From positions 19,864,560-19,928,559 of the forward strand of contig NC_134027.1 in assembly GCF_964204645.1 (NCBI RefSeq): a stretch of 64,000 nt of DNA. The letters are read 5' to 3'. The position numbers and the translations under genes are program-made. Under the pieces are notes generated by a model. That model had not been told where the DNA came from, searched no databases, and worked only from the letters and a program-made list of their open reading frames with translations. Shown here in pieces: positions 1 through 59,500 of this stretch. This stretch comes from Tubulanus polymorphus (lineage: Eukaryota; Animalia; Nemertea). Each line of letters opens with the position of its first letter. The first letter of the stretch is position 1.

Positions 1-809
1 ATACCTTTAATAGATCTTCTTGGGAAGTTAATATTCTCATTAATTATTTCATCATTTGCATTAATAGTTACGGTTTTAAATTTATCAATATAATCATATA
101 ATAATGAAAACCCTTGATTGTATTGGGTTTGAATTATACTTGAAATATTTTCATCAGTTACTGTATCATATTCTAAACATATATTCGATAATTTATAACT
201 CATATCTTTAACAACGCTAGATAATACAATTTCATTTACAGGAGCAAATGTTATCTCAAATATAACATCTTCTTGAATTGCGTATTTATATAAAGGTGCA
301 TTATTATTTATCAATTCAAAGTCTAATGGAATTTTATATTTGCTTCCATATATACTTTTTATCAATTTATCTACATCATTTGTTAATATTGCGCTATTAG
401 CTTCTGATCTTAATTTATTTTGGTTTTCTGATTGGATTCCTTGAAATATCATATTATTTCTATTTTCTTTAGTTAACCATAAATCTTTATAATGCATAAA
501 TAAATTACAATCATCTAATGAGAAAACTGTTTCTGGACCAATCTTTATTGTTAACTTTTTAATCAAATATCTTCCAACATTATCAACAACATAATTATTA
601 TTATTACCGATTACTTTTATATCAGCTGATAAATAAATACTGTTTGGAACATAAAAAGTATTTTGTGTTAATCTCGGAATTCTAACGTATAAAGTTTCAT
701 CGGGATTAATATTTGAAGGGTTATGAGTAATTATATGATGTGATCTTTCTGCTTTAATAGCATTAGATATTCTATGATTCTTAGAAGGATTGATATAACT
801 TCCACTCAT
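1..809 (-). CDS. Major capsid protein (double jelly-roll type), 3' end beyond the window; absent from the ORF track
   Basis: Open frame from ATG at 809 to the edge: MSGSYINPSKNHRISNAIKAERSHHIITHNPSNINPDETLYVRIPRL...NVGRYLIKKLTIKIG...YKDLWLT...YKIPLDFELI...ITFAPVNEI...YKLSNICLEYDTV...NINFPRRSIKG. The motif pattern matches the MCP of marine-invertebrate Polinton-like elements as I recall it. Confidence 0.8.
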   Translation of the reverse strand, partial: MSGSYINPSKNHRISNAIKAERSHHIITHNPSNINPDETLYVRIPRLTQNTFYVPNSIYLSADIKVIGNNNNYVVDNVGRYLIKKLTIKIGPETVFSLDDCNLFMHYKDLWLTKENRNNMIFQGIQSENQNKLRSEANSAILTNDVDKLIKSIYGSKYKIPLDFELINNNAPLYKYAIQEDVIFEITFAPVNEIVLSSVVKDMSYKLSNICLEYDTVTDENISSIIQTQYNQGFSLLYDYIDKFKTVTINANDEIINENINFPRRSIKG

Positions 810-850
810 TTATTTAACAAAAAAATTAATTATTTATTTTTAATCATGGT

Positions 851-2526
851 TTACTTGATATTTTTTGATATCATATTCACTAACCCAAAAATAATAGCAC
901 TTACAACTGTGATTAAAAATAAAATAATATGTTCAGCAGCAAAGTTAAGAATATTACCTGCAGATTTCAATATAAAACCAACAATTGAAGCAATAACTCC
1001 TGGTAATGCTGCAGCAGATTTTTTAGATAGTTCCCATAAATATTTTGCTAATTTCTTTAAACCATCTTTAACTTTATCTTGTATAGAATTATTGCTTGGG
1101 GGTTTATCTGGTTTATTGGGAGTGGGAGTAGGAGTAGATTTCAAAGCATTTGATATAGCTAAACCAATTGTTGTAAATAACATAGTTACAGCTGTTAGAA
1201 TTGAAAGAATTGTTATTCCTTCTAATTTAAATAATAACTTTATTCTGTCTTTTAATGATATTTCAGAATTCGGTTTAATCAACAAATCTTTAAAAATAAC
1301 TTTTAATCTATTAATATTATAATCATATGATTTTAATAATAATTTAATTTCTTCTTTTTGTACTTCTAAATTATCTTTTAAATTATTAATTTCTTTTTCT
1401 AAACGTAATTCTTTTTTTCTATGTTCTATTTCATCAATTACTTGATGATCTAAATCAGACTTTAATTGTTCTATTTCTTTATTTTTATCAGTTCTATATT
1501 TTTCTAAAAATCTAATTTTAATATCTCTTTTACTTTTTTCATGCGCAATTTTATCAGCTGATTCTTGCATACCTTTAATTTATCTACGTGTTTGTTCAGG
1601 AAATGCTTCTAATTCATCATCAGTTAAATCAGGGAAGTGTGATGACACACAGGGAAGTGTGATGACACTCATCACACTTCCCTGGTTAAATCAAATAATC
1701 CTTTTTCTAGTAAAGATTGTATTCGATTTATTCCAGTTTCAGTACCGGGTGTATCTAAAATACTATTCATCTCTTCGTCAAATGAATGAATTACATCTAA
1801 CATGCTATCAAAATGTTTTCCTAATTGTAATTGACTTGAATCATTATCAATTTGTTGAGTGTCTCTTCTCGATGTTTCAGGTGTTGAAGATCTCAATCTA
1901 TCTCTATTCTCTTCCATTTCCGTTTCTGGTTCTAAATTATCATAGATTTTGTCAAATAACTCATTAATTCTTATTTTAAATAATTTTTTATAGTAATCTA
2001 TTTCTTCTTTTGTTACATCTTCTAGTTTATTATTATAAATAATTTTCTTAATTCTATCTGGTTCTAACTTAAGCAAAGTTGATTTTGCCAATATTTTGTT
2101 TTGATTTTTATAAGAGATATTAATATAATATTCACCATTTAAATTATCACCATCCAAATAATAATAATATTCACCATCTAAATATTTTAAATCTTTTACT
2201 AAAAGTCTAGCGCCTCTATCATTTATATTATAACCAGATTCTTCAAATAAAGGTTTAAAATCATAAATAAATTCATTATATTCTAATTCTTGTCTTGCTA
2301 AATCTGGATTTTCATTTTCAGTATTTATTCTCTTTCTATTTGTTCTATCAAATTCATCTGTTGATGGGATTTTAGAACCACTATCTGCTAAATTAGAATT
2401 ATATGCTGATTCATCATCATTATCAATATTAGTTCCATTAAAATCGGGTTGTGGTTCATCATCAATATATCCCTCATTATTATTTCCCATTTCTCCCATT
2501 TCATAATCTTCTACTCCTTCTGCCAT
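851..2526 (-). pseudogene. Single viral coiled-coil/membrane protein gene (about 537 codons) split into two ORFs
   Basis: Removing the 62-bp insert+TSD at 1630-1691 puts ORFs 1672..2526 and 851..1570 in frame (...GLFDLTDDELEAFPEQTRR*IKGMQES...). One TAA remains at 1580-1582. Acidic N-terminus, coiled coil, TM helix (GITILSILTAVTMLF), Pro-rich linker, then ALPGVIASIVGFIL and a C-terminal TM helix. Confidence 0.8.
1623..1691. repeat. DNA-transposon excision footprint (P-element type) inside the viral gene
   Basis: GTTAAAT [CAGGGAAGTGTGATGAC aca CAGGGAAGTGTGATGAC ac TCATCACACTTCCCTG] GTTAAAT: 7-bp TSD around 17- and 16-nt inverted ends. Confidence 0.75.
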
Positions 2527-2542
2527 TTACATAATAAAAAAA

Positions 2543-3844
2543 TTAAAATTTAAAATATAATATTCCTCCGATTACAATTCCTATACAAGTTATAGCTAAC
2601 TTAGTATTTTCATGGGATTTATTATCATCATTTAGTTTAATTATATCATGTTGAATTTTATCAGTTCTATTATTTTCCGTAGTATTATAATCTTTTATTT
2701 TAGAATCATTATTTAATTTAATATTCTTAGTTTTAGTTTCAGTTGATTGAATGTGTTTTTTATTTTTTTCACCTTCCATTAATTTTGGAGCAGTAATAAT
2801 CTTTTTATTTATATCATTCAATCCAAATGAATTATTTATTGTTGCAGTTTTAATTAGATTATTATAACCAATTATATTTCCCATCTTCAATACTAAATCA
2901 TTAGAAATAATTAATAGATTAGGGCCTATACAATAATTAAGTCTTACATGAGATTTATCTAAATAATTTTGATATCTTATAATGTTTTTTGGAATCGATC
3001 TATTTTTATCATTATGAATTGAATCTTCAAATAAAACTTTAAACTGTTTCTGCGCATCGAATGAAGTGTTATCATTTCCAATTATTGGGGATCTTGTTTC
3101 AACTTGAGCGCCTAAAATACATATCAAATAAATTCTAATAGATTGATTTATTCTTTGTATACCTGATTTTGTAAAACCTTCACCATTTTCTAAAATGAAA
3201 TTAACCCAACCATTATTATTATCAATTTTATGATTATGATAAGCTCCAATTCTATGCATATAATCAATTCTTTTTATTTCATACTGTTCACCAACACCTT
3301 GCAATTTACCATGCGCTCTAAAATCGGAATTAATATTTATATTAAATTCATTACATATTTTATAAAACTTGGATATATTAATATTATTATCCAATTCTTT
3401 AAAATATTTAGACCCGGGTAAAGGACATTCTAATTCATTTAATATTATTCTGATTTGAAAATATGTGTGAAATCTAAATATTGTGTGAATTAATTTTAAA
3501 TCAGAATACTTCAAATTTTTATCTAAGTTATTTAAATGATCATTCCAACTTATTCCACATCCTGTTGTTGCACAATAAACAGCAAAATTTAATTGATTCT
3601 GCCAATATTTCATATTAGATTTTACTTTATATATATGATATTCATCTCGAGTAAAAGTAACTTCATATGTATTAAATATATTTTCCATTTTAGAAATAAA
3701 AAACTGTGATTCATTAACATAAATTTCGAAATTAGTTAATGAATTTAAAACTATATTTCTATATGTAATATTTTTCTTAAAATCTATTGCTGGAATATTA
3801 TATTTAATTGATTTATTATATCGGAAAGCTTTTGGAAACCCCAT
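2543..3844 (-). CDS. Conserved unknown viral protein, 433 aa, C-terminal membrane anchor
   Basis: Intact ORF with YWQNQLNFAVYCATTGCGIS, FRFHTYFQIR, KICNEFNI..DFR and RINQSI..Y..CILGAQV motifs, recalled from related elements. Hydrophobic C-terminus LAITCIGIVIGGILYF. Confidence 0.85.
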   Translation of the reverse strand: MGFPKAFRYNKSIKYNIPAIDFKKNITYRNIVLNSLTNFEIYVNESQFFISKMENIFNTYEVTFTRDEYHIYKVKSNMKYWQNQLNFAVYCATTGCGISWNDHLNNLDKNLKYSDLKLIHTIFRFHTYFQIRIILNELECPLPGSKYFKELDNNINISKFYKICNEFNININSDFRAHGKLQGVGEQYEIKRIDYMHRIGAYHNHKIDNNNGWVNFILENGEGFTKSGIQRINQSIRIYLICILGAQVETRSPIIGNDNTSFDAQKQFKVLFEDSIHNDKNRSIPKNIIRYQNYLDKSHVRLNYCIGPNLLIISNDLVLKMGNIIGYNNLIKTATINNSFGLNDINKKIITAPKLMEGEKNKKHIQSTETKTKNIKLNNDSKIKDYNTTENNRTDKIQHDIIKLNDDNKSHENTKLAITCIGIVIGGILYFKF

Positions 3845-3860
3845 TTATATAACTAAAAAA

Positions 3861-4295
3861 TTAATAATTTATTAATTCTTTTAATAATTTATCTTGTTCT
3901 TCAACTGTTATATGACCATTTAAACTTATTATATAATCTAGTGTGTTCTTTAATTTATTAATTTCTTTTATATTAGTTTTAATTTTTTCTTTATTACTTT
4001 TTATATTTAATTTTGAACTTATACCAGTTAAAACACTTGGACTTAATCCTAATACACCAATTGATATAGCTAAAGGTGTTAATGGGCTGAATATTGCTAG
4101 AAATGTTATTACAGAACTAATTGTAACCGAACCACTTATAATCAAATAATATATAATTTTACTTTTTAAATATTTTTTCTTTTTTATCTTTAAGTCACTT
4201 TCAAATTCTAATATTTGTTTTTCTAAATATGTTTTTAATTTAGTTTTATTTATATCATGAGGAATAATATCAATATTATCAACTTTATCTTCCAT
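3861..4295 (-). CDS. Viral two-TM helical protein, 144 aa
   Basis: Intact ORF: basic coiled coil, two hydrophobic segments, C-terminal NGHITVEEQ..LL..L..Y motif. Confidence 0.8.
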   Translation of the reverse strand: MEDKVDNIDIIPHDINKTKLKTYLEKQILEFESDLKIKKKKYLKSKIIYYLIISGSVTISSVITFLAIFSPLTPLAISIGVLGLSPSVLTGISSKLNIKSNKEKIKTNIKEINKLKNTLDYIISLNGHITVEEQDKLLKELINY

Positions 4296-4314
4296 TTATT
4301 TAGAATAAAAATTA

Positions 4315-4737
4315 CTAATTAGTAAACTTATAAGCAACAAATATAACAATAACTGTTCCACCTAAAATCCAAATTATTTCATATTTCTGTTGTTCTTTAC
4401 TCGGGGTATAATAATCTGATAATTTAGGTTTGTATAGATGTAATTTTTCTTTATTTGTTACTGCGTTATATAAACTCATTGCATCATCAACTGATTGAAA
4501 ATCTCTATGTGAAATCTTCTGATTATATAATTCTTTATTGATGTAATCCATATAGTTTTGTCTCTTTTCTCTATATTCTTCTGCAGCTTTATTGTATTTC
4601 TCTAACGCTAAATTATGTCTTCTTTGTTCTCCTAATGAACTATTTTTATCAATATGTTTAAATAAATAACCACCACCAGTAAATGCTAAAGCGTTAACAA
4701 TTGCCGATCCTATAATAGTTATAATTGCAGAAGCCAT
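4315..4737 (-). CDS. Viral membrane protein, 140 aa
   Basis: N-terminal hydrophobic MASAIITIIGSAIVNALAFTGGGYLF, an E.RRH.LA.E coiled coil, P.LSDYY.PS..Q and a C-terminal TM helix. Confidence 0.85.
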   Translation of the reverse strand: MASAIITIIGSAIVNALAFTGGGYLFKHIDKNSSLGEQRRHNLALEKYNKAAEEYREKRQNYMDYINKELYNQKISHRDFQSVDDAMSLYNAVTNKEKLHLYKPKLSDYYTPSKEQQKYEIIWILGGTVIVIFVAYKFTN

Positions 4738-4983
4738 TTATTTAGCAAAAAAATTATGCATTTTTATGGGAGGAATATATTTTTGTTTTTCCAAATAATC
4801 AATAGTTAAATTAGATAAAGTAACTGCTAATGTTAATTTTAAGATATCATTTATATCAAATCTATCAACATTAACACTTCCCATTTTGAATACTTTTTTT
4901 AATACCATTGAATAACCAACCGTTCCAACTGATAGTAATGCGCCATTATATAATCCAGTTATTATCCACTTATTATCACTCAT
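4738..4983 (-). CDS. Small hydrophobic viral protein, 81 aa
   Basis: Intact ORF abutting its neighbours via TAAATG; two hydrophobic stretches. Confidence 0.8.
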   Translation of the reverse strand: MSDNKWIITGLYNGALLSVGTVGYSMVLKKVFKMGSVNVDRFDINDILKLTLAVTLSNLTIDYLEKQKYIPPIKMHNFFAK

Positions 4984-5340
4984 TTATTTATCAAAAAAAT
5001 TACTATCATCAAAATATTTAGTTAACTTATTTATGATTATTTCAACATTTATTTCATTACTAGTTTCATTTGTATATATTTCAATTATTATTTTTTTAAT
5101 ATCATCGATGATAAAATCTTCATCTAATTCATAAAATCTTAAAGATTCTCTAATTAAATTAGTAATCTTTTCTACATTTAAAGTTTCTTTATCTATTGTT
5201 GTTTCATACTCAAATGTTGTTTCATTAGAAAATACAACATTTTTGATTTGTGTAATTACATCATTAATGTTAAATTTCATTTCTTTCTCACGTTTAAAAT
5301 CAAATCCAAAACATATACTCGGTCCAACAGTTATATTCAT
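4984..5340 (-). CDS. Unknown acidic viral protein, 118 aa
   Basis: Intact ORF in the packed array, carrying the shared upstream motif. Confidence 0.7.
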   Translation of the reverse strand: MNITVGPSICFGFDFKREKEMKFNINDVITQIKNVVFSNETTFEYETTIDKETLNVEKITNLIRESLRFYELDEDFIIDDIKKIIIEIYTNETSNEINVEIIINKLTKYFDDSNFFDK

Positions 5341-5356
5341 TTATATAGGTAAAAAA

Positions 5357-6112
5357 TTACTCTTTACATCTTATAACTAATTCATAAATTACAGGAAAGT
5401 TATTCAAATCAATTAAGTATCCATTGTGATTTCTTATTTCTAACTTAAAATTATTAAATTTTGGAATACAAGGTTTGAAATCACAATCTGTTAAATTATA
5501 ATTTATTTGAGTTCCAAATTGTTTAACATTTTTTAATGGTAAAATATTTAGTATACTAGAACTACAAATTGTTTCTTTAGTTGCTTCGAAAGTTTTTGTA
5601 GGCTCGATTAAATTGCAATAAATATAAAAGTGTGTAAAAGGTATTATATTTGAGCTGCCTTCTGCGTTTTCAGTAACTGTAAGCGGTTTAATTCCTAACA
5701 TTTTAGCCAGTGGTTTGTTTACCATATATTTATGTTGTTCATTAGATATCTTTATTCTAATTTTATTAGTACTATCAATTTTATTAAATTTAATTTCAAA
5801 TAAAGAAGTGCCCCCGATTTTCAACCGCGCTCTTCTATTAATTTCCTGCGCTAATGATTCTAAATTATATAATCCTGGTTTTAAAAATATATGAAACCAT
5901 TTATCTTTATTTCTCATATAAATCATAAACCCTCTATGTTCAAAAGTTTTATCCGATATATTATAAAAAGAATTACATAAACTTATATTTACTAATTTTA
6001 AATCAACACAATTCTTAAATTCTCTATCTAATTGTACTAGTAAATTATGTGATTTATAATTTGTAAGTTTTCTAGAATCAACAAATATTCTGTATTCTTT
6101 TAATTCCACCAT
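5357..6112 (-). CDS. Minor capsid protein (penton, single jelly-roll)
   Basis: Typical Polinton mCP pattern: IFVDS...LKLVNISLCNSFYNIS, PGLYNLESLAQEIN, FYIYCNLI, ILNILPL, LEIRNHNGYLIDLNNFPVIYEL. Confidence 0.8.
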   Translation of the reverse strand: MVELKEYRIFVDSRKLTNYKSHNLLVQLDREFKNCVDLKLVNISLCNSFYNISDKTFEHRGFMIYMRNKDKWFHIFLKPGLYNLESLAQEINRRARLKIGGTSLFEIKFNKIDSTNKIRIKISNEQHKYMVNKPLAKMLGIKPLTVTENAEGSSNIIPFTHFYIYCNLIEPTKTFEATKETICSSSILNILPLKNVKQFGTQINYNLTDCDFKPCIPKFNNFKLEIRNHNGYLIDLNNFPVIYELVIRCKE

Positions 6113-6129
6113 TTATTTTACATATTTTC

Positions 6130-6471
6130 TTATTCGAAATCTATTTCATGGTGCCCTTTTTCATTCTTACCTTTGTATACGAAATAGAAATCTCCAGAAC
6201 ATAATTCTTCTAGATCTTCACTTGATAATCTATGAAATCTATCTGGTAAATAAGTTCTGAATTTATATTTATTTTCTTTTAATCCTTCATATTCTAAATG
6301 AATTACTAATTTATCTCCATATTTATTAGTAATTGTTTCAATGTTAGTAATTAAATATTTCTTGTGAATTGTTAACTCAGTTAGTTTTTTAAATTTATAA
6401 TCTACAGATTTGACGCTTGAAGTATCTTTAATTCTATCTAAGAATTCACTGTGTACTTGTTTACTCTCCAT
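6130..6471 (-). CDS. Small Polinton-associated protein, 113 aa; putative OB-fold ssDNA-binding protein
   Basis: KKLTEL..HKKYLI....T.KYG..L...TYLPDRF...FVYKG pattern, directly downstream of pPolB. The fold is an inference. Confidence 0.6.
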   Translation of the reverse strand: MESKQVHSEFLDRIKDTSSVKSVDYKFKKLTELTIHKKYLITNIETITNKYGDKLVIHLEYEGLKENKYKFRTYLPDRFHRLSSEDLEELCSGDFYFVYKGKNEKGHHEIDFE

Positions 6472-6501
6472 TTATTATACAAATTTTTATTAAAATTGAT
6501 T
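6469..6501 (-). promoter_or_regulatory. Second viral promoter-like motif, AATCAATTTTAATAAAAA, upstream of the 113-aa gene
   Basis: 18-mer at 6484-6501 is identical to the one at 10531-10548; they start 30 and 31 nt before the respective ATGs. Confidence 0.65.
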
Positions 6502-9500
6502 AACACGCTAGAATCCTTTTCATAATCTCATTTTCTTTTGTTTCTTCTCTTTTGAATTTTATATATTCATCTAAATTGCAACCATAGGCGACTGTGTGGA
6601 TTCCATCATCTAAAATATATCTTTTATCATCAAATGGGTTTAGACTTATCTTCTCTATCTCTTCAATATACATTTCATGATCTTCAGATCTTAAACATTT
6701 CATCTTATGTTTTCTAACTTCTTCTTTAAATATACAATTGATGTAATCTTTGAAATGAATATTTTTTTCTACTACACTTTTGGTTATTCCTTTTAACTTT
6801 TTAGCTTCATGTTCTTTAGTTTTATATGAATACATTTTAGATCTAATACCTATGAACTCTATCATTTCTTCACCACCTAATTCATCCTTAAACTTCCCAG
6901 GAACTTTTTTATTATCATTGCTAAACAATTCATGATTTTTTGGATAATTATTGAAATCAAAATGATGTTTTAATGTTTTTAAATCATCTGTTATGTTATC
7001 AGTTTTTATCTTTAATATGTAAGAATCTGTATCAAAATATAATATTTCTATATTCTTTTCTCCAAAATGATGTTGTAATACATTATAATAGAATTCATAC
7101 ATCAATAGCTTTGAAATTTCTAAAACTGCAGCTCCAACATAAATCGGTTTGTTAAATTTCATACTTGTTCTTCTCATTTTAACTGCAGCTAAATTTTCAT
7201 TAAATATTTTGTTACCTATAAATTTAGGATATGTTTGTAAATGCCTTATCCTTTTGCTATTACTTACTAACTCAATATCATTTCTATTTCTTATGTTTTC
7301 ACAAGTTTTTCCATAAAACGCATTATTCATTAACTTAAAAAAATCCTTCTCAAAATCAGTTTTAGATTTAGTTCTCTGTGTAGTATTAAAATCTATATAT
7401 TTTTCTAACCACTTAGATTGACTGAATGAAATATATCTATGTACTTTTTTTAATATCATTCCTTGTCTCAAATAAAACTTTAACATTCTATAATGTACTA
7501 CATAATTATATTTATCTTCTTGAGTTACCATTAACTTTTCAGTATGAATATGATTATCGGGTTTAATTCTTTTTTGATAATTTGATAATTCTTCATGTTT
7601 AACAGTTTTATGTTCGGGACAATATGCTAGATTTCTAGATTTGAATTTAATATTTTCAGGGTATTCTAAATCTACAACGAAGAAGTAACCAGTATCTGAA
7701 TCATCTGCAATATCTAGGATTCTTTTCTTCCAATCAAATTTATCAATTTGTAAAACTTCAGTTATTTCAAACATCCCATAAGGTTGTGGTTCCATCATTG
7801 CCCAACCATAAAGATTATTTGCATCTATGTATAATAATTTATATCCAGGATTATCATTTACATTGAAATATCTATCACCCAATACACCTGAAACACCTCC
7901 TCTTATAGATTTTTCAAATCATAGTAATTGATCTATATTTGTTAACAAATCCATTTTTATATCTGTAAATTTTAATCCACAATCCCATGTTAATCCTGGG
8001 CTAGAATAACAATGACATGGATCAATATTAAAATATTTTAGGTTTACATCTCTAAACCTTTCGAATATATCGGTTAATAATAATACATCTGATTTTAAAT
8101 ATAAATCTACTAATTGCCCGTGATTTTCTATTTCGAAATGATTCCAAATATTCAATGTTCTATTATAGACTTCATCTTTAACATATTCATTTTTTAATTC
8201 ATCATAGAATTGTTCTTTCAATAATTCAGTTATTTTAAAATCATTATGTGATTTATAAAATGAATATGGAATTGCTCCTTTATATCTCATTAATTGAAAA
8301 TCATCATAATTTGGGTAATATTCTTTTAATATCTTTAATTCATCATCAACTAATGATTTTGATAAGTTATCTAATGAACTATTTAAAAATCTATATGAAT
8401 CTATAAATCTTAGGCAACCAAATTGGAATGATATATAATTCTCAGATGTTTTAGCTAACATTCTAAATTTATAAGTTGGTATTTTATCTTTTGATCTATT
8501 TGAATTTAATATTTCTATTTCATTATTGATTTCTTCTATTTTATAACATAGCTGTTTGATAAATAAATGTGCATCATATCCTGATAGATTATGAAATATA
8601 ACTGGTACAAAATTAATTTTCTTAGCTTGTAAGTTACAATTCTCATGTGCAGCGCCTCTAAACTTTCCATTCAAATGATCATGGTCTCTTACTTTTTTAT
8701 CTTTATAATTAAATATCTTTTCACAATAATAACATTTATCAGCAAACTCAAATTCTTCTTTATCTTCTTCTGTCATTATAATTTCTATATTTGTATTCAA
8801 TAATTTACTAAATTTTATTTCATATTCAATTAATAAGTCACAAAAATGATTGATAACATTTTCATTTCTATAATTATAATATTCACTTTCAATTAGTTCT
8901 GGATAATCAGATTTAATATATAACCCGAAAGCTGCAGCTGATTGATGAATCTTTTTAATTGTATTTGTTATTGGTGGTTCATCTGAATAATCACTTTCAT
9001 TAGAATTTAATTTCTTTCTTTTATAATATATATCTTTTCTATCTTTATCTGTTAATTCTTTATTTAATGATTCAAAATCTCCATATATTACAAATGGTAC
9101 TTTATTTTTGTAATCATATTTTTTGAATTCTAATATTTTATCCTTTTCATTTGGTAAAACTAATTTACAATAATCATGATTATCACATAGTTGTTTATGA
9201 TTTAATAATGTACTTTCATTACTAAATTTATGTAAACATTTTCTACATAGATATATTTTATGGTGATCATTTTCTGATTTGAAAAATAAATCTATTTGTT
9301 TAATCCACATATAATGATTCTCATAATATAGTATATCTATAACATTATTTGAATCATAATCTTTTGATAGGTATAAAGGTTCTAATGTATAATGTTTAAT
9401 ATTATTTCCTTTTGTATTTGGTAATTTAATTAAATCAAATACATTTATCTTTAAATTATTATCTCTTTCTATTTTTGGAATATTTTTAATTCTAACAGGA

Positions 9501-10517
9501 TACTTATCTATCTTATAATTATTTTCAAATTGTTTATAATGAGTTAATCTACAAATATTATAAGTTGCAGGATGTAAACAACTTATTATAGCCCATATAA
9601 AACATTTTTTATCAAAATTTTGTATATTTATTACTGCTTTTGTTGTAAATGGTAGTTTAATATAACTTGTTCCATTTATACTATCATCTTTATAATATGA
9701 TAAATTATTTTCATCAATTGGTTTTGATTTAGTTAACTTATTATATTTTGTGTTATAAACATGTAAAGTTATAAATATTATCTCATCAAATATTAAACCA
9801 GATCCTTCAAAATATTTCTCTTCTATTTTAGTTTTTATTTCATTATAACATTTATTTAATTTATCATCTATATGTTGTTTTGAAATAATATGTTGTGAAT
9901 GAGAATTTATATTATATATTGGTTTATCTTCAGATTTTATGAATTTAACTTTAACTGATATACTAATTTTAGGATATTCAACATCTGTAATTATTTTTAT
10001 TATTTCTTTCATATTTTCTAAATGTTTTTTATTTTCTTTTAATGTTTTACCTTTATGAAATTTAAACTCGATAGCTGCTGGGCCAATATCACTTTTAAAT
10101 GCTTCGGTTATCTCTATATCTTTTTTCTAATGAATTAATATAATTTCTTACATCTTCCATGTATGGTCTTTTATTGTTTAATTTATTTTTTATTCTTTTA
10201 ATTGTCTTCTGTTTCTTATCGTTATCATTATCAAAATAATCTTCACCTAAAATATCATTATTCTTATTTCTAATATGACTTATAGATTTTAAATGTTCTT
10301 TATAATATCTTTTATCACTGAATGATTGATTACATGTATCACATTTGTATGTTTCTTTTTCATTCTTTAATTCTTCTAATTTAGTTTCTAATATATCATC
10401 TTTATATTCTAGTTTCAATTTATTCTCTAAATGTGTTATAGTTTTATTGTGTCTTGCTTTTTGGGATTTAACTATATCGATATTACATGTTGGGCAGTAG
10501 TACTTATTTGCTTCCAT
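6500..10517 (-). pseudogene. polB: Protein-primed family B DNA polymerase (pPolB) with N-terminal C2H2 fingers and an EndoVII/HNH insert; two lesions
   Basis: Exo I VIYGDFESL, Exo II FHNLSGYD, Exo III YLKSDVLLL; Pol A YIDANNLYGWAM, Pol B KLMNNAFYGK, Pol C YFDTDS; EndoVII C..C...VRDHDHLNGKFRGAAHENCN. ORFs 7919..10012 and 6500..7882 are in the same frame, separated by one TGA (IDQLL*FEKSIRGG). ORF 10095..10517 joins through a frameshift in the 6-T run at 10121-10126 (LEK/DIEITEAFKSDIG...ENMKEII). Confidence 0.92.
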
Positions 10518-10548
10518 TTTAATACTATATTTTTTATTAAAATTGATT
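10515..10548 (-). promoter_or_regulatory. Second viral promoter-like motif upstream of pPolB
   Basis: AATCAATTTTAATAAAAAATATAGTATTAAAATG; same 18-mer as at 6484-6501. Confidence 0.65.
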
Positions 10549-10599: not shown

Positions 10600-10865
10600 A
10601 GTAATAGGGATAATGGGCTTTCGGGTTAAAGGTTGAACGGGCGGGTGAGTAAAAATGAAAAACATAAAAATAATAACAATTTCTACTTGAATTAGGAGTG
10701 AAACTCATAAAATGAAAAATAAATTCGAGCGTGTGAGAATTTATTTTTCATTTTTATGAGTTTCGCGAGTAATTCAAGTAGAAATTGTTATTATTTTTAT
10801 GTTTTTCATTTTTTACGAGCTCGACCGTTCGACCTTTGATCTGAAAGCCCATTATCCCTATTACT
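10600..10865. repeat. About 266-bp imperfect palindrome in the terminal region of the viral element
   Basis: Arms AGTAATAGGGATAATGGGCTTTC...AAATAAATTC and GAATTTATTT...GAAAGCCCATTATCCCTATTACT around the loop GAGCGTGTGA (10727-10736). Confidence 0.9.
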
Positions 10866-20222: not shown

Positions 20223-21597
20223 ATGGCCTCACGGAATTCTATCAAATGCGTTGTGTTTTGTGTGGTGTGTATAATTTCACGATTGTTCACAATTCAAGTG
20301 GTAAGTGGTAAGTTGTACGTGAGTTCGCAGATACCAGCAGATCAGACACCATTCAAAACCCGTCCCTCGGAATCTTTAATCGATTGTGCAGTTTTATGTT
20401 CACAAGAATGGAATCTCTGTCTCGGAATACGTTTCGAAAACCCACGCATCTGTAAATTGTACAACTGGTTAGGGCCTAATGATGGATTCATGTCGCCTGG
20501 TGAGACGTTCGTCAAAGCAGATAAAGGTGCGCATATCAAGCAATCGGTTATCTTAACTTCAATCATGGGTTTTTTTTAAATTTACTCTAGATCCATTTCT
20601 ACAGCTGTGAGCTAAATTTTTCTCCCGGCCAAGTTCAAAAGTGTAGCCTTCATTTAACTCTGAAGCCATTTCCACAGCTGATGTGGGTTCAATTTTACTC
20701 AGGATCAACTTTAACAGTAGTGGATGGGCGCAGCAATTGAAATAATTCTTCCATTTCGTTACCTGTTTCTCGTTTCACGATCCACCGTTTTCGGCTAATG
20801 AAATAACTGTTCTTTTTTAGTAAAATTCTGCCCTGATGGATTCAAACAGGTTATCTATAACTGTTATAAAATGATTCTTGACCTGAAGTCATCAAACGAT
20901 GCACGTAACTATTGTTCCAGCATTGGGGCGAAACTGGCCGAACCGAGGACTAACGTTGACTTACGGGGTGTGAGAGCCTATCTAAAAAATAGATATTCAC
21001 AAGGTTAGAGGATCAAATTATTTTCCATACCTAAACACGTGTAGCCTATAAGACCTAATTCAAATTTTGCTTTCCATCAGTGTTCTGATTTAATTTGAAT
21101 CTGAACCCAAGTCAATTAACGGTTGAATTTTATTCTAGGCCCAGTTCCAGTTGTAGCTTTGATTCGGGTCAGCATTCCTGTTCTCCTTAAGTAAAATAAT
21201 TGTGATGTATCGCATATGATTCTAAGTATGGCAAATTATCTTACCCTCATTCAAGTCCTCTCCCGGCTACACCGATGCTTGAAAATCATTTTCTCAGTGA
21301 TTCATAAAAAAAGTTTTTTTTCAAGTGATTTGATCAAAAGAGTGGATCGAAAGAATATATTCAAAAAAAGAAGTGTCATTTTTTTCAGAACGACCGATCA
21401 TAGGTGGTCATGACACGCGGGTAAGCAACCCGGGTGGATCATGGGTCTGGTTGAGCGATAATTCATCTATTGCTTATCTAAACTGGACACACATTCAGAC
21501 GAAGACTTGTCTACAGATAGAATCAATGTTACAGAAACAGGTCTTAAACGCAGTTTCCTGCTCTCTGCCGTTTTCGTTCTTATGCGAAGCATTTTAG
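20223..21597 (+). CDS. Secreted PAN/apple + C-type lectin domain protein, 231 aa, 3 exons (20223-20526, 20821-21003, 21389-21597)
   Basis: GT-AG introns with matching phase 1. Signal-like N-terminus; SLIDCAVLCSQ...C.GI.F...CKLY (PAN); CPDGF....NCYK...DARNYCSSIGAKLAEP...IIGG.D...WVW.SD...NW...C...C..P.SFLCE (CTLD). Confidence 0.88.
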
Positions 21598-45300: not shown

Positions 45301-47972
45301 CTACACAAAAGGAATCTAAATTCCTGATATTTCCCACACATTTGACCAAAATTTCATGATTGAATCATAAGGTATCAACGGCGGAGACTGTTTCTTCTCA
45401 TGAGGTTCATTCAGTGTTACTCATCTACAGGCAGCAAGAGCAACAAGACATGAAAATTCAAATTCCTTGGACCCAGTTCCACAGTTCTGAGTAAAGATTT
45501 GTCAAAATCAGCCATGTTCATTTGGTAGACAGAGTCGACCTAAAATCAATTTGGTCTGCCATTCGTTATTAGGGAAACATAGTTGATCAACTCAGATGGC
45601 TGTTTTCCTGGGAGAAAGAGTTAATTCAATCAATAAACCTATAGGCCTACTTACTACTATCACTAATGTTCTCTAAACTTACCGAATTATCTTTGTTTTC
45701 CTTTTCTTCAAGAAGTCGTTTGGCAGTTTCTGAAGCGCTTTTAGCTTGTTTCAGAGCAGCTTCCTGCTGAGCGTTCAACACAGCCGTACTGCAGATTAGT
45801 CCGACCAATCGCTTCAATACCCTAAAAATAATCACAGAATGCAGAACTAGATGAAAGCCAAATTCATAAGGACACCATTCTACCAGAACGTCAATTGTTT
45901 CCAATAGCCGATCTTTCATGTGATAGTGAGCTCCAAGGGGGATGAATATATAGAATTTTTTTCAATCGGGGATCATTCATGGAAATCTTGCATTTTATTT
46001 GATGGCCTAGATGGCATTGGTCACGTGATAAAAGCACATGGCCGAAATACCTTAAACCTATCAAGGCCCAGGAATTTTGCTATGTAGGCCTAGCATCTAT
46101 TACTCCTCAGAAAATTCAAGGGAAAATCCAAATTTATCATTATACAGAATAGCTTATTCAGTTTATTTTCAAGTATTACAAGTTCCTGTTATTTTATAGT
46201 AAACAGTCAAGGCTTTCACATGAGATAAGATTTGATGACGTAGACCACCAAATCGTGTCCTTTTGCCCCCCTACCGAAATTCATCCAAACCTACTTGGAT
46301 TTGAAGTGGGCGCTCAGATATGTCATATTCATCCTCTAAATACTCGAGAATTTAAAATAGGAAGATCTTGATTCCTGTACAGTATTCTGAGGAGTTTGGT
46401 GCCAAGTTAATCAAGCTACTGGGTTCGATTCCCATTATGACAATTTTTGTGCAGCAGACAAAAAAAGTGTCAGGGTGGCATTTGGCGGCTTGAGGAGTAA
46501 TAGGCAGAGTAGATACAAGTGGCTAGATTGCTAATGGGTCAGTATACACTGCGATGCATGAAACATGAAACTATGTAACAGTCGCCTTGGAGAAATAATG
46601 GGCTTTGAAATTTGGATTGGGAGTCAATCATTGTCATCAGGGTTTGGTGATCAGGACAGAATGAAGAATTGACTGGAACAGCAGAAGTCAGCGTAACGTT
46701 TTACTAAGATTATTAATTGAAATATTCTGACTATGAATAATATTTTGCCACAACAGACTGATTACCGCTTCATTTGATATTTGGTGACCGGGTTTTCAAA
46801 TCATTATTTACAGTTCTTAGTTAATTTCATCGCTCAATGTGAAAATGCTAATCATTATCATATTTGGTAAGAATATGATTGTAGTTCATTTCTAGAGATT
46901 GTTGCAATTTGAGTTTTTGTCTCAATTAGTTTTTTTTTTCTTTCTGAACCCACGCCAATACCATCAGCAAGTTGGTTATATACATACGTACGCCTTACAT
47001 TAAAACCATTGCTCGAAGCGTCTTCAAAAATTCTCAGATTTTGGCAAACAATGATGGCCACCAGTCAGCTATCTTGATTCTGATTGGACAAATTTGTTGG
47101 CTCTTTATATGCCTAGGGTAGACATCACGACAATCTTTAAATCACATAAAACCTTGTCTAAATAACTTGATCCTGTCTTCCGATGGATGTCTCATGAAAA
47201 GTGAACACAATAGCCCACTCAGGGGCTATGCCTCAAGTGGGCTAAGAATAAAGTAAATCATTTCTGTAGATAAACCAAGGACAAATCAATTGGAGTTTAA
47301 TTACTCAGACTTTGTCCTGGACTCTGCATACCTTTCAGACACCCGTTACAAAATTAATAGGAGGGCTAGGGACAGCAGGACCTAGACTGGAGATTGATAG
47401 CTGTGATAGTGGGACAGATGTATGAACAACTTACAGCCACAAGAACAGCGCAAAACCAGCAATGTAGAAATTCCTCTGAGCGCGGAAGAGTTTCATATGC
47501 ATCATTGTCTCAGCTTGTGGATGGTGGGCAGCCTCCACGGGGTCGATTGCACTTGAATAATTTCTCACATCACGAATTGCATCTAAAATATAATACAAAA
47601 CTACCAATACTGCCTGTTATCCAGAGAATAACCAATTTTGACCAAGGTGAGTTCTCAATGTTTCTTGTTACATTCACTAAACATACCATGGAACATCTCA
47701 CCCGCAGCCTAAATGGAATAACATGGTTTTTGAAAGAACTCATGCCTAAACAGAACTGAAGAACTTTTTAAGAACTTACCCATGAACAGAATAACGAGAA
47801 TAACGATCAATATGTTGAAATATAAATGAGAGTGACTTTCTAGATTCTTCAGCAGGCGTGATTTGAAGATTTTCTGCCATCTTGCAGCTGAAATCCACGG
47901 CACCAGTAGTAAGATGACGAAGAAGATCTCTGTGTAAAGAAACGTCGCTACAAATGTCCACTGCAATGACAT
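39365..47972 (-). CDS. BCAP31: B-cell receptor-associated protein 31, 253 aa; coding exons 47972-47780, 47582-47435, 45821-45683, 45131-45005, 41698-41598, 39418-39365
   Basis: MSLQWTFVATFLYTEIF..LLL.PWIS..RWQKIFKSRL; DAIR.V; MKLFRAQRNFYIAGFALFL; A.LKQA.SAS; M..QA.ST.KEYDRL..EH; C-terminal KKDD ER-retrieval signal. All introns are GT-AG with consistent phases. Confidence 0.95.
39707..41388. mobile_element. Non-autonomous hAT-like element with 6-bp TSD, in the last BCAP31 intron
   Basis: CCTGTG|CAGGGTGGAAAGTC ... GACTTTCCTCCCTG|CCTGTG; contains HINE copy A. Confidence 0.65.
40320..41362 (-). mobile_element. Helentron/HINE-like element, copy A, with an internal 154-bp satellite
   Basis: Subterminal GCCCAC/GTGGGC, terminal hairpin, A/T-run flank; satellite units start at 40390, 40544, 40698 and 40852. 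Confidence 0.75.
42000..43198 (+). mobile_element. Helentron/HINE-like element, copy B (inverted relative to A and C)
   Basis: TTTTAGCCCACTTAGGACTT...; reverse-complement satellite units; ends GTGGGCATGGTCTTCCTGGACCCATAG. Confidence 0.75.
43393..44794 (-). mobile_element. Helentron/HINE-like element, copy C, with five satellite units
   Basis: AACTAGGGGCCAGGGACACCATGCCCAC start (a CTAG end on the minus strand) and GTGGGCTAAAAA end; unit cores at 43468, 43621, 43773, 43931 and 44081. Confidence 0.78.
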
Positions 47973-48299
47973 CGTGGTCGAGAAACTACAAATAAAGAAG
48001 AAAAAAGATATCATTTTTGAATTAAAGGTTTTTAGTAAGAATGCAGTTAAGGTGTCCAAGGAGTAGTGGTGTCCTATCCAAATGAGTACCAGTAACCAGA
48101 ATGAGTATCAGAATGTTTAGCTGACTGGACTGGGATCAAGAAAAAAGGTATTAGTAAATAATTTGCAACCAGCGAAGTGGTTGATCTTTCTAGTATCTAG
48201 AGGTGTTCAACTATATTCATTTGATAGCTTTCACTCGCATGCAGTTAGAAACTGTCCATAAATAACATCCGCATGAAATAGCTAAATTTTGACACGTTC

Positions 48300-56556: not shown

Positions 56557-59500
56557 TTAGGAAATCGGGTCACAATGAAAACAAAACCACCTGATATGTT
56601 CAGGAGGAGCCTCATTGATTGGAGCACATTTCCAATGATACCATCTATGGCAATTATCACATTCAATTGAGAATGTGGACTTTTTCTTAGGATTAGCATT
56701 GCAGTTTTTGTGGCAGACAGGGCAGGTTTCAGCAACTAACTGAGGAGGGGTTTTTTCAACTTTTGATGGCAAAAGATTATCTAGTTTCAATTTTGCTAGG
56801 TTTTGGAGGCCTGCATTTCCAGGTTGATCTATAAGAATTTCTAATTCTTTTTCAGTATTGGAATTATTGATTTCTGTAATAGGAGAACTGTTGAGATAAT
56901 CATCTCTATTATTATAATCGATTACAATAGATTTTTTCTTATGATGATTATGTTCAATACGAATGTGCTTTTGAAGGAATGTTTCACTTGCATATGAATT
57001 AATAACCCCATCTGCCCAACAAATAGCACATGAGATAGGTTTCAAAGATGAATGAGAAGTGGATATGTGCCTATCTAGTTCCCTGCGACATGAACAAAGA
57101 TATGGAGGATTTATTTTGTCTTTAATACAAAAGGAACAGACAATACTTTTTTCAAATAAAACAGACTTCGAGTCATTTTTAACAACTGGTTATGACTTAA
57201 TATCTTTTGGTTTGGTATCTTTTGATTTTTTCGGTAAGGATGATTTATTCTGACTTAAAATATCTGCTGAAAATTCGATATCATTGCCAGGATCTGGATC
57301 AGTGGAGTCTATGGTTTCAATTTCTGATATTTTAGCTTTTTTAACCTAGTTTCATAGCAGCATTTTCAACCATAGCAGAAAAGGATACACCTCTGTTAGC
57401 AGGTCTAATTATCTTTCGCCCTCCGTGTCTTGCATTCTCAGCATCTTTAGGCATTGTAACCTTAGGGCAGTAAGGGTCTATCACTTCAAGTTCAGGAAGG
57501 TTTATGGCAACCTGATTGTCCTTGATTGGACCCTCAGCACGCCTATGAGCCATATTGTGAGGTTGTCGTTTGGCAGGTCGTCCGCTTATTAACTTAATTC
57601 CACAGTGGCTTTCATTATGTAAAATACTTAGAATGTGCCCTTTCCGAGCAGCATTGATATCATTCGAGCTAGCAATGTGGGAATGATCTTTTAACTTATC
57701 AATGAGGGTAGATGAAACAGAACTATTTTGTCGAGTAAAATTGTAAGTTGGCAGAGGCTCCACAATGTGGAATTTATATGCATCAATTAAAGCCTTCGTT
57801 GTGGTTATATTGTTTTTTTGGGCAAAACAGGCAAAAAGATGTTTGCAAAAATATGGTTGTCCAATCATTATAAAAGCTTCACAAGTACATATACCTAGTT
57901 TCAAATTGATTAAATGGCAATTACCATCTACGTATGAAAGACAATTTTCAGGAACGATTGTAATAACGTAATTGAATAAGATACGACTGGATATTGAATC
58001 TAAATTTCCTATGTACCTTCGGCATTTTTTTGAAATGTCATATGAATGTTCCTCGGATATTGATACTTTATCGGGGAATCTTTCTTCTAAAACATCAAGC
58101 TGATTGAATGTATATTGAGTATCACCATTGAAAAATTCTACGTACATTTCATCTTCATCTTTCAATAGCAGTAGTTCCATTATCCTGTTATTTATGAACT
58201 GATTTCCCTTACGGCTGGGGTGTAACAAGTCAGTCCTAGATCACAAAATTTAGAAAAAAACAAGTTAGTTTAAATCGCGAAAAAATGCACATAACCTACT
58301 GGGCTTATTAAAATTAAACGATTACTTACGGTGAAAGGAGATCTCTTGAGAAGTGAAAATCAACGAACTTTACACCAAGTGTAAAGCATTCGCGGTGCAG
58401 CATTTCATTGTAATGAAATATCTTTGTGTCAGCATCGAAACTTTAAAAAAGAAAGAAATTTAAAAATCATAACATCGATCATAAATATAGTATTTCAAGA
58501 AAAATCTATTCTTGATACTTACTCATCACATCGAGGAAAAAGAGCTGGTACAATGATGGTCCCAGTACATTTATAGAGCAACAATCGAATTAATTCAACG
58601 TGTCTTCGCAGAACAATCTCAAGCGGGACATCACGCGTCATATTATTTGTTCCAACATGGACGATTAGTTGTTCCACATTCAGCATCTTCACTTTTTCAA
58701 TTCTGTAATATACAACTAATCAGTAACCCAATGAAAATGAACAATATAAATCAGTACTGAACCGAGAAATTACCTTCCATCAATGTTTCAATGGTTCCTC
58801 CGGGGCACACGATCCTTGTCCATTCAAATAAGCCTACACCATCTAGCCCAGCATACTTTAAAATGCTGTCTGCTACGAGACCAATACGCTACAAAAAAGA
58901 TTATTTGTCAGTCTCAGGCCAATATCACAGGGAGGTGTGAGAGAGCACACTGGTTACTGTAAGACCCTACTATATGCAAAAGAAGTGACACATATATGTA
59001 TATCAATGTGATAGAATTGATTGAAAAAATTGTGCATAATAGTAGCTAGTGCCCAAAAATAGAACACAGTGTTATTGAAGTGAAAATTTCTAAAATCCTC
59101 TGAAGCGGTGCTTATTTGGTAGCTACATGGGTATTCTAATTGAATAAGCATAAAGATAAGCGTGCACACACAGTAGCCTATGCATAAACAAGGGCCAGTT
59201 TCACCTTCACCTAAAAGTCCTGCGGTGTAAAGACTAACTTGTTCACCTAAACCACCTCTACCAGGCTGTGGAAGGCCTAACATCAGGCACTAAATTAAAA
59301 GATTCCTCTAAATCAAATTATCTATAAACATCCTCTTAATTGCTGGCAGACTGATTCAGGGAGGGGTGCAGCCCAAAATAGGGCATAGGTATCAGTATCA
59401 TATATAATTAAAAATCAAAAGGGCACCAGATCATCAGAAAACATAATACCTATATTTTGGAAGTAGGCCTACAGAGAACATGTTTTGGAATATAAGCTTT

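Follow-up and report, generated by a model that had tools for sequence, protein, structure and literature searches.

Introduction

Several virus-like elements that lie integrated in protist genomes carry upstream motifs matching the promoter of a large DNA virus, as described for mavirus and the endogenous mavirus-like elements (EMALEs) with their helper CroV (PMC8547959), for PgVV Gezel-14T with its helper PgV (10.1101/2022.07.28.501842) and for the polinton-like viruses (PLVs) of Tetraselmis (10.1101/2025.10.09.676808). Here we analyse a 64-kb stretch of contig NC_134027.1 (hereafter the window), which holds one end of a Maverick/polinton (Polintoviricetes) most of whose genes begin with a fixed motif of poxvirus type. 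Like the protist elements, this one has polymerase and capsid genes, with an integrase in its relatives, and its lineages differ in their motif. The protist systems differ in their hosts, in their Mimiviridae-type or algal-virus helpers, in their motifs (TCTA or AAAATTGA) and in that dependence on the helper has been demonstrated experimentally, whereas the window element has a poxvirus-type motif and a likely animal host, and no helper for it emerged from the scans described below.

Three further groups are close enough to be compared. Relatives of polintons have been linked to poxviruses in animals through PLVs present in entomopoxvirus occlusion bodies, two of which fall within the mavpol2 capsid clade as divergent members; these differ from the present element in encoding an adenain-type protease and in lacking an rve integrase (Barth et al., 2024; PMC11296320). 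The words 'promoter', 'motif' and 'transcription' are absent from the available text of that article, and a search of its supplement returned two TAAATG, both in repeat sequences. Mavericks, polintons and adintoviruses (10.64898/2026.06.19.733378; PMC8502044) share with the window element a family B DNA polymerase with protein priming (pPolB), a double jelly-roll capsid protein, a penton and integration in multiple copies, and with its relatives an rve integrase and an A32 ATPase; no cysteine protease was matched here among the open reading frames (ORFs) scanned. Virions of animal Mavericks have never been observed (10.64898/2026.06.19.733378); 'promoter' occurs 0 times in the available text of that source, and no promoter analysis appears there or in the corresponding text of PMC8502044. 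Finally, the yeast pGKL plasmids are pPolB replicons with a poxvirus-like TAAAN initiator, but they have their own RNA polymerase, no capsid and an early-type upstream element (PMC6211774). Promoters that match those of a helper are thus already known from virophages and PLVs of protists, and a few PLVs of insects have a known link to poxviruses. No report of a poxvirus-type promoter or a TAAATG motif in polintons or Mavericks was found among the open-access papers that the searches listed, subscription papers and preprint supplements lying outside their reach.

A fixed motif at the gene starts

An earlier interpretation of the window, made from its letters only (the sequence-only reading), proposed that seven consecutive viral genes are each preceded by an exactly spaced motif running into TAAATG. 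The pattern TAATTTTT-N8-TAAATG indeed has seven exact matches, all on the minus strand and none elsewhere in the window, compared with a mean of 0.02 and a maximum of 1 in 100 shuffles of the window, and a mean of 0.013 and a maximum of 1 in 300 resamples of the AT-rich element alone, so that the enrichment also holds against a composition-matched AT-rich background. Positions are counted here back from the T of TAAAT unless stated otherwise; the sequence-only reading gave the A of each ATG, and from that base the first T of every motif lies at -19. When gaps of 3-15 between TAATTTTT and TAAATG were tried, matches were obtained at 8 only. The claim that the spacing never varies therefore stands within the window but not among sister copies in the host, where one-base insertions adjoin two of the motifs (94/767 and 104/563 reads).

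The motif sits at gene starts. The element has seven sense-strand TAATTTTT octamers, all of them at motif sites and hence at gene starts, and three more in antisense. There are 24 sense-strand TAAATG, nine at ORF starts and 15 internal; T fills positions -9 to -13 at 7/7 motif sites, and a run of five T at -13 to -9 precedes none of the 15 internal copies. TAAATG overlies the start codon at 9/11 main ORF starts of the window. Beyond the seven, three starts have a run of A in the upstream place: those at 6471 and 6112 with TAAATG behind it, and that at 10517 with TAAA directly before ATG; the first and the last of these have one 18-mer in common. That the seven genes are consecutive holds if ORFs 1672-2526 and 851-1570 are counted as one interrupted gene; both match a single 485-aa protein of L001, the closest relative, the N-terminal match being weak (E 5e-4). 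Two motifs lie inside the upstream coding sequence and give it the ends NFFAK* and NFFDK*, as the sequence-only reading had observed. The L001 orthologues end differently, which is consistent with a DNA signal overlying coding sequence. Among the 40 listed of 154 sites that vary between host copies, none falls in TAAATG (24 positions), one in the octamer (32) and five in the spacer (32), which is only suggestive of conservation of the motif among these copies. Gene conversion may be the cause of the uniformity of this copy.

Conservation across a clade of relatives

Relatives were gathered as 61 metagenomic loci fetched with a capsid alignment; their ORFs were clustered, and from the conserved families those starts were kept whose N-terminus is intact. 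A capsid search of IMG/VR matched no capsid relative. The midpoint-rooted capsid tree (33 rows of at least 260 aa, shorter pieces being omitted) contains a core clade of 15 rows that includes the window (support 100/99) and an outgroup of 13 rows (100/100). The 15 core relatives counted below include L013, which was placed by similarity and is off the tree, and short fragmentary loci were left uncounted.

TAA stands directly before ATG at 41/50 conserved-gene starts of the core relatives and at 8/8 starts of three deeper loci, compared with 0/13 in L015, L018 and L020 and 0/69 in the 13 outgroup loci, including 0/29 in the AT-rich outgroup members. On the capsid tree this label requires 3 changes, against 11.3 in shuffles. 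Because the core and the AT-rich outgroup differ so sharply and the changes on the tree are few, TAAATG is, as judged from these comparisons, a trait of the lineage, and AT content does not account for it.

The upstream part is conserved in outline. Among 70 de-duplicated starts with TAA directly before ATG, from 26 loci picked as TAAATG-bearing and with the window excluded, T occupies -11, -10 and -9 in 69%, 71% and 86%, compared with 19% at -15 and 33% at -6, and A is found at -15 and -14 in 67%. In an internal TAAATG control, T is found at -9 in 31% of 108. The peak of T is kept in loci of 33-44% GC (19/23). The exact TAATTTTT recurs at 4/70 of these starts, so that the conserved signal is an A-then-T core ending 9 bases before TAAATG, of which the window has an unusually uniform version. 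As such, the layout proposed in the sequence-only reading extends across the clade (41/50 against 0/69), and its exact letters are local.

A purine at -3 favours translation. The core clade has T at that base in 42/50 starts, and the outgroup has A in 48/69.

A signal in DNA

Orientation of the genes helps to separate a signal in DNA from one in RNA. When the window is included, 6/79 TAAATG starts use the upstream stop codon as their TAA and 18/79 face a divergent gene; in the TAAATG loci, both genes have TAAATG in 9/10 head-to-head pairs. In five of these pairs the two genes are 28-30 bases apart, which gives a single central core the proper spacing to each of them. Divergent pairs with the motif on both sides exclude stop-start coupling or a poly(A) signal as the general cause. 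The motif thus appears to act at the DNA level, where a promoter can explain the divergent pairs, and the suggestion of selection on the DNA in the sequence-only reading gains support from them. The shared bidirectional element of the divergent genes in L008, L011, L012, L036 and L038 is 34-36 bases long and reads CATTTA-N8-core-N8-TAAATG.

Comparison with poxvirus promoters

In vaccinia late promoters, TAAAT, in most cases with a G after it, overlaps the start codon and a conserved T stands ten bases upstream amid other T; intermediate promoters have TAAA without the upstream T and are richer in A upstream (PMC11980589); the description in PMC5294985 is similar. All vaccinia post-replicative messages have poly(A) leaders tied to TAAAT (PMC7163114; PMC6211774). 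Furthermore, many genes are marked with TAAATG in the gene table of salmon gill poxvirus (PMC4542343), so the signal exists in an aquatic poxvirus. The polinton starts resemble the late promoter of vaccinia and mpox in having an initiator fused to the start codon, with G following in 55/79, and in their peak of T at -9 to -11, a likeness that was judged from the published description rather than from poxvirus sequences. In these two respects, initiator and upstream T, the likeness to the poxvirus late initiator drawn in the sequence-only reading is borne out.

Similarly, the A-run starts form a second, A-rich class resembling the intermediate promoters of vaccinia. A strict split into late and intermediate genes was considered and set aside, as two of the small genes and their L001 orthologues fall in opposite classes. 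T content nevertheless differs between capsid and ATPase starts (3.8 vs 2.0 of 5; 17 and 6 starts; p 0.007). The polintons differ from vaccinia in being small integrating viruses with no RNA polymerase found in the ORFs scanned, and in that nearly all of their genes carry the motif, integrase and ATPase included, its role as a promoter being putative.

TTTTTNT is the poxvirus early terminator, and the sequence-only reading had noted it in connection with the motif. The pattern is present in 5/7 motif sites of the window, and many relatives have AAAAT or AAATT in its place; early termination was accordingly rejected as the main role of the motif. T5 runs are depleted in all five groups when tested against codon-shuffled ORFs, and the poly(A)-signal, TTTTTNT and CpG tests against such ORFs do not separate the clades.

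Which polymerase might read the motif?

Taken together, the enrichment of the motif, its clade-wide layout, its bidirectional use, its match to the vaccinia late promoter and the absence of any matched RNA polymerase family from the polinton ORFs scanned (part of the ORFs) suggest that it is probably a post-replicative promoter read by the polymerase of a co-infecting Nucleocytoviricota helper, with initiation of the poxvirus late type. In such a scheme, late factors of the helper would bind the A/T core 9-15 bases upstream, transcription would start in the AAA of TAAATG, and each gene would yield its own message with a 5' poly(A) leader made by slippage; with this leader a favourable purine at -3 would not be needed. 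The integrated copy would be largely silent until a helper infects the cell, whereupon the element would replicate with its own polymerase and package itself, in the manner of mavirus with CroV.

A poxvirus is not the only possible helper, because a similar layout is found in an unclassified giant-virus bin, G001 (loci L070, L088 and L089), and the sister element L018 has a TATA like that of African swine fever virus (ASFV). G001 encodes VLTF3, RPB5 and topoisomerase II, and has (A/T)AA directly before ATG at 20/29 ORF starts vs 49/1011 other ATGs, a T run 11-14 bases upstream with its peak at -13 to -11, and TTT-N8-TAAATGG 11 times vs once in the control. L070 was retrieved through the motif itself and has no tie to the host of the window element. 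The T run of G001 lies about two bases further out than that of the polintons, whose peak at -11 to -9 is nearer the description of vaccinia. L018 (47% GC) has TATA at most 22 bases from 6/7 conserved starts vs 25/331 ATGs (p 1e-6) and is placed, weakly, near the TAAATG clade on the capsid tree. TATA is not confined to that lineage, since the AT-rich outgroup locus L017 has it at 5/6 starts. Late genes of ASFV have been described as initiating at TA(+1)TA, and for the EMALE types a switching of start motifs along with the helper has been proposed (PMC8547959). If such switching also occurs here, the pattern in L018, one clear locus, is what it would give.

Several observations weigh against transcription by a helper. 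Two motif scans of IMG/VR (26 and 48 loci) returned no virus with TAAATG at most of its starts: 1/26 loci, L070, is similar, and the scan for divergent pairs gave 0/48. The upstream excess of T is in part a general one, with T filling the same place in 17/29 AT-rich outgroup starts vs 42/50 in the core (p 0.017); the internal TAAATG control is coding DNA whereas the starts are mostly intergenic, and the 70 starts, coming from related elements chosen as TAAATG-bearing, are not independent. Coding DNA shows no avoidance of poly(A) hexamers (43, observed/expected 0.98), although the AT-rich outgroup shows none either (1.04), so that this count favours none of the models. The other end of the element lies beyond the window, which makes the gene set seen a partial one. 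Loci that we take to be prasinovirus-like have TAA directly before ATG at up to 5/12 starts, one of them having been selected by the search pattern, and prasinoviruses are not known to encode an RNA polymerase. Moreover, transcription has been seen in coral samples for the polintoviruses of corals, which belong to the wider family, with no helper named (PMC11131425).

The expression of these coral viruses also bears on the first of four other explanations, in which the motif is a compact core promoter that host RNA polymerase II reads in the nucleus, alone or with a small viral factor, and that merely resembles or descends from a poxvirus-type promoter. We regard this as unlikely, though deserving of serious attention. 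The element is integrated in multiple copies in a nuclear genome, L018 encodes a VLTF3-like protein (E 3.6e-5, just under the Pfam cut-off) and the TBP of the host has been reported to target vaccinia promoter elements of the intermediate and late classes. However, a canonical TATA/BRE is situated about 24 bases upstream of the start site (PMC7163114), while the core here ends 12 before the ATG, too close for a leader to fit in; T at -3, although unfavourable, is retained across the core clade, and neither the window nor the TAAATG loci yielded a VLTF3 homologue.

A role at the level of RNA is improbable. In that case the TAA and the ATG would couple stop to start for re-initiation on polycistronic messages, or the U-rich stretch with AATAAA would form the 3'-end signal of the upstream gene. 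The genes of the window are all on one strand and tightly packed, the upstream stop is the TAA of TAAATG in 2/7 cases and that of the octamer in 3/7, and AATAAA is present in 4/7. Among all 79 TAAATG starts, by contrast, such use of the stop is rare, the divergent genes have no upstream message, both partners of head-to-head pairs carry TAAATG, and the AG of a trans-splice acceptor is absent.

Transcription by a polymerase of the element itself or of a companion, as in the cytoplasmic linear plasmids of yeast, is less probable again. In the pGKL system one plasmid supplies a poxvirus-like RNA polymerase that works with TAAAN initiators and poly(A) leaders (PMC6211774), and the unseen end of the window element leaves space for further genes; but L001, which covers the genes past the capsid (integrase, ATPase, kinase), gave no match to an RNA polymerase family in the part of its ORFs scanned, and the yeast upstream element, ATNTGA, differs from the conserved core here. 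Equally doubtful is that the repeats are recombination or gene-conversion sites homogenising gene heads for cassette shuffling, without a promoter role: gene order and orientation vary widely among relatives and the octamer is unusually uniform in the window element only, but in the relatives the exact letters vary from gene to gene with TAAATG and the geometry preserved, a pattern that homogenisation would not give.

The element and its surroundings

The element occupies the first 10865 bases of the window, with 18-26% GC compared with about 30-52% in the remainder, and its features are collected in Table 1. It is a Maverick/polinton, integrated in multiple copies, because it combines capsid and penton folds with pieces of a protein-primed polymerase and a sharp end joined to many flanks; it is virophage-like in the sequence-only reading but probably not a virophage by descent, and an antiviral role of the element is unsupported. 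The model of the L001 capsid protein has a double jelly-roll and matches capsids of iridovirus, PBCV-1, Sputnik and mavirus; the iridovirus and PBCV-1 scores exceed those of Sputnik or mavirus, which is a comparison of scores and not a test of membership. The two polymerase pieces match, with BLAST E values of 2e-102 and 3e-93, an L023 protein that itself matches DNA_pol_B_2. The polymerase gene is interrupted near 7900 in this copy, and the zinc-finger ORF is possibly part of it. No Pfam match was found for the 433-aa protein, whose L001 orthologue is without an Atlas match, and none for an adenain-type cysteine protease in the part of the polinton ORFs scanned, the element being incomplete. 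Gene content and order are shared by L001, in which the capsid gene is followed by the rve integrase, the A32 ATPase and a kinase; the integrase and an A32-like ATPase are seen there in other relatives too, in a region that lies outside the window. The deoxynucleoside kinase gene (L001:10340-10981) carries the motif, and the homologues matched by its product were all without a name; such an enzyme, by supplying nucleotides, would fit a replication that takes place outside the nucleus.

Reads from an independent run on DNA labelled as the same organism gave a depth over most of the element of several to about 10 times that of the flank, with most reads 90-99% alike, and 1318 reads diverge at 10865 into unlike flanks (agreement 0.34). 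The raised depth and the departing reads indicate a multi-copy integrated family with a sharp end. Length variants occur among reads inside the terminal hairpin, a near-perfect one that possibly acts as an origin of replication or a fold-back end. Apparent read joints between motifs (4281-4734 and 6488-10540), with no more than 20-22 letters on one side, were taken as mis-mapping. At 1402-2335 the depth (at 90% likeness) is at or below the flank level, the other parts of the element being several-fold higher, which marks the N-terminal portion of the long gene as fast-varying between copies. At the interruption of that gene a short sequence is duplicated and inverted (1624-1690).

A Bap31 exon at 47709-48107 in the flank shows the host to be a eukaryote, and the known range of the family (10.64898/2026.06.19.733378) makes it likely that animals carry the elements of this clade. 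The stretch 45647-48107 also holds a second Bap31-like piece near 45700, recognised by eye without a Pfam match. An Atlas search with a protein of the host gave no match. Elsewhere in the window are an ORF for a small secreted cysteine-rich protein with a PAN-like look (20223-20579; also by eye, without a Pfam match) and, at 56557-58240, a PHD-finger ORF beside an ORF that by eye resembles the remnant of a SWIM-type transposase.

Table 1. Genes, start motifs and terminal structure of the Maverick/polinton end in the window.
Feature	Position	Strand	Remarks
Major capsid protein, double jelly-roll	3..809	-	cut by window edge; 77% identical to 415-aa protein P0002/L001
Long gene, two ORFs (1672-2526, 851-1570)	851..2526	-	hydrophobic C-terminus; interrupted near 1570-1690 in this copy
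433-aa conserved protein	2543..3844	-	family of 11 ORFs
Four small genes (144, 140, 81, 118 aa)	3861..5340	-	140- and 81-aa ones conserved in the wider family
Penton (minor capsid, single jelly-roll)	5357..6112	-	model of window protein pLDDT 68; best Foldseek match mavirus penton, E 3e-9
113-aa protein	6130..6471	-	orthologue in L001
Protein-primed polymerase pieces, ORFs 7919-10012 and 6500-7798	6500..10012	-	Endonuclease_7; BLAST to L023 protein
C2H2 zinc-finger ORF	10095..10517	-	adjoins polymerase
Terminal imperfect palindrome, about 266 nt	10600..10865		element end at 10865; -107 kcal/mol (DNA parameters)
Motif (T run and TAAATG)	807..828	-	fused to start codon of major capsid gene
Motif	2524..2545	-	heads interrupted long gene; first TAA of motif is stop of upstream gene
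Motif	3842..3863	-	heads 433-aa conserved gene; first TAA of motif is upstream stop
Motif	4293..4314	-	heads 144-aa gene; intergenic, abuts upstream stop
Motif	4735..4756	-	heads 140-aa conserved gene; within upstream ORF, encoding its NFFAK* end
Motif	4981..5002	-	heads 81-aa conserved gene; within upstream ORF, encoding its NFFDK* end
Motif	5338..5359	-	heads 118-aa gene; first TAA of motif is penton stop
A-run variant, AAAAT-N8-TAAATG	6110..6135	-	heads penton gene
A-run variant, AATCAATTTTAATAAAAA...TAAATG	6469..6501	-	heads 113-aa gene; repeat family D4
A-run variant, same 18-mer as at 6469..6501, TAAA before ATG	10515..10548	-	heads zinc-finger ORF that opens the polymerase region

Conclusions and outlook

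Dependence on a helper has so far been shown for protist elements only. A putative poxvirus-type promoter shared across a clade makes the expression and spread of animal Mavericks open to test and gives a sequence handle for the helper. If the motif is indeed read by a helper, the mavirus model of integrated, helper-triggered elements would extend to animals. A wider view, which we offer tentatively and would not yet expect to hold, is that a large branch of animal Mavericks may be endogenous virophages whose helpers are large DNA viruses, poxvirus-like ones among them. The gene starts would then record the helper of each lineage, with TAAATG and a T run in the core clade, an ASFV-like TATA together with a VLTF3-like gene in L018, and neither in the outgroup. 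On this view the motif could act as a barcode pointing to large DNA viruses still unknown from marine invertebrates, while the many integrated copies might provide an inducible antiviral defence in animals.

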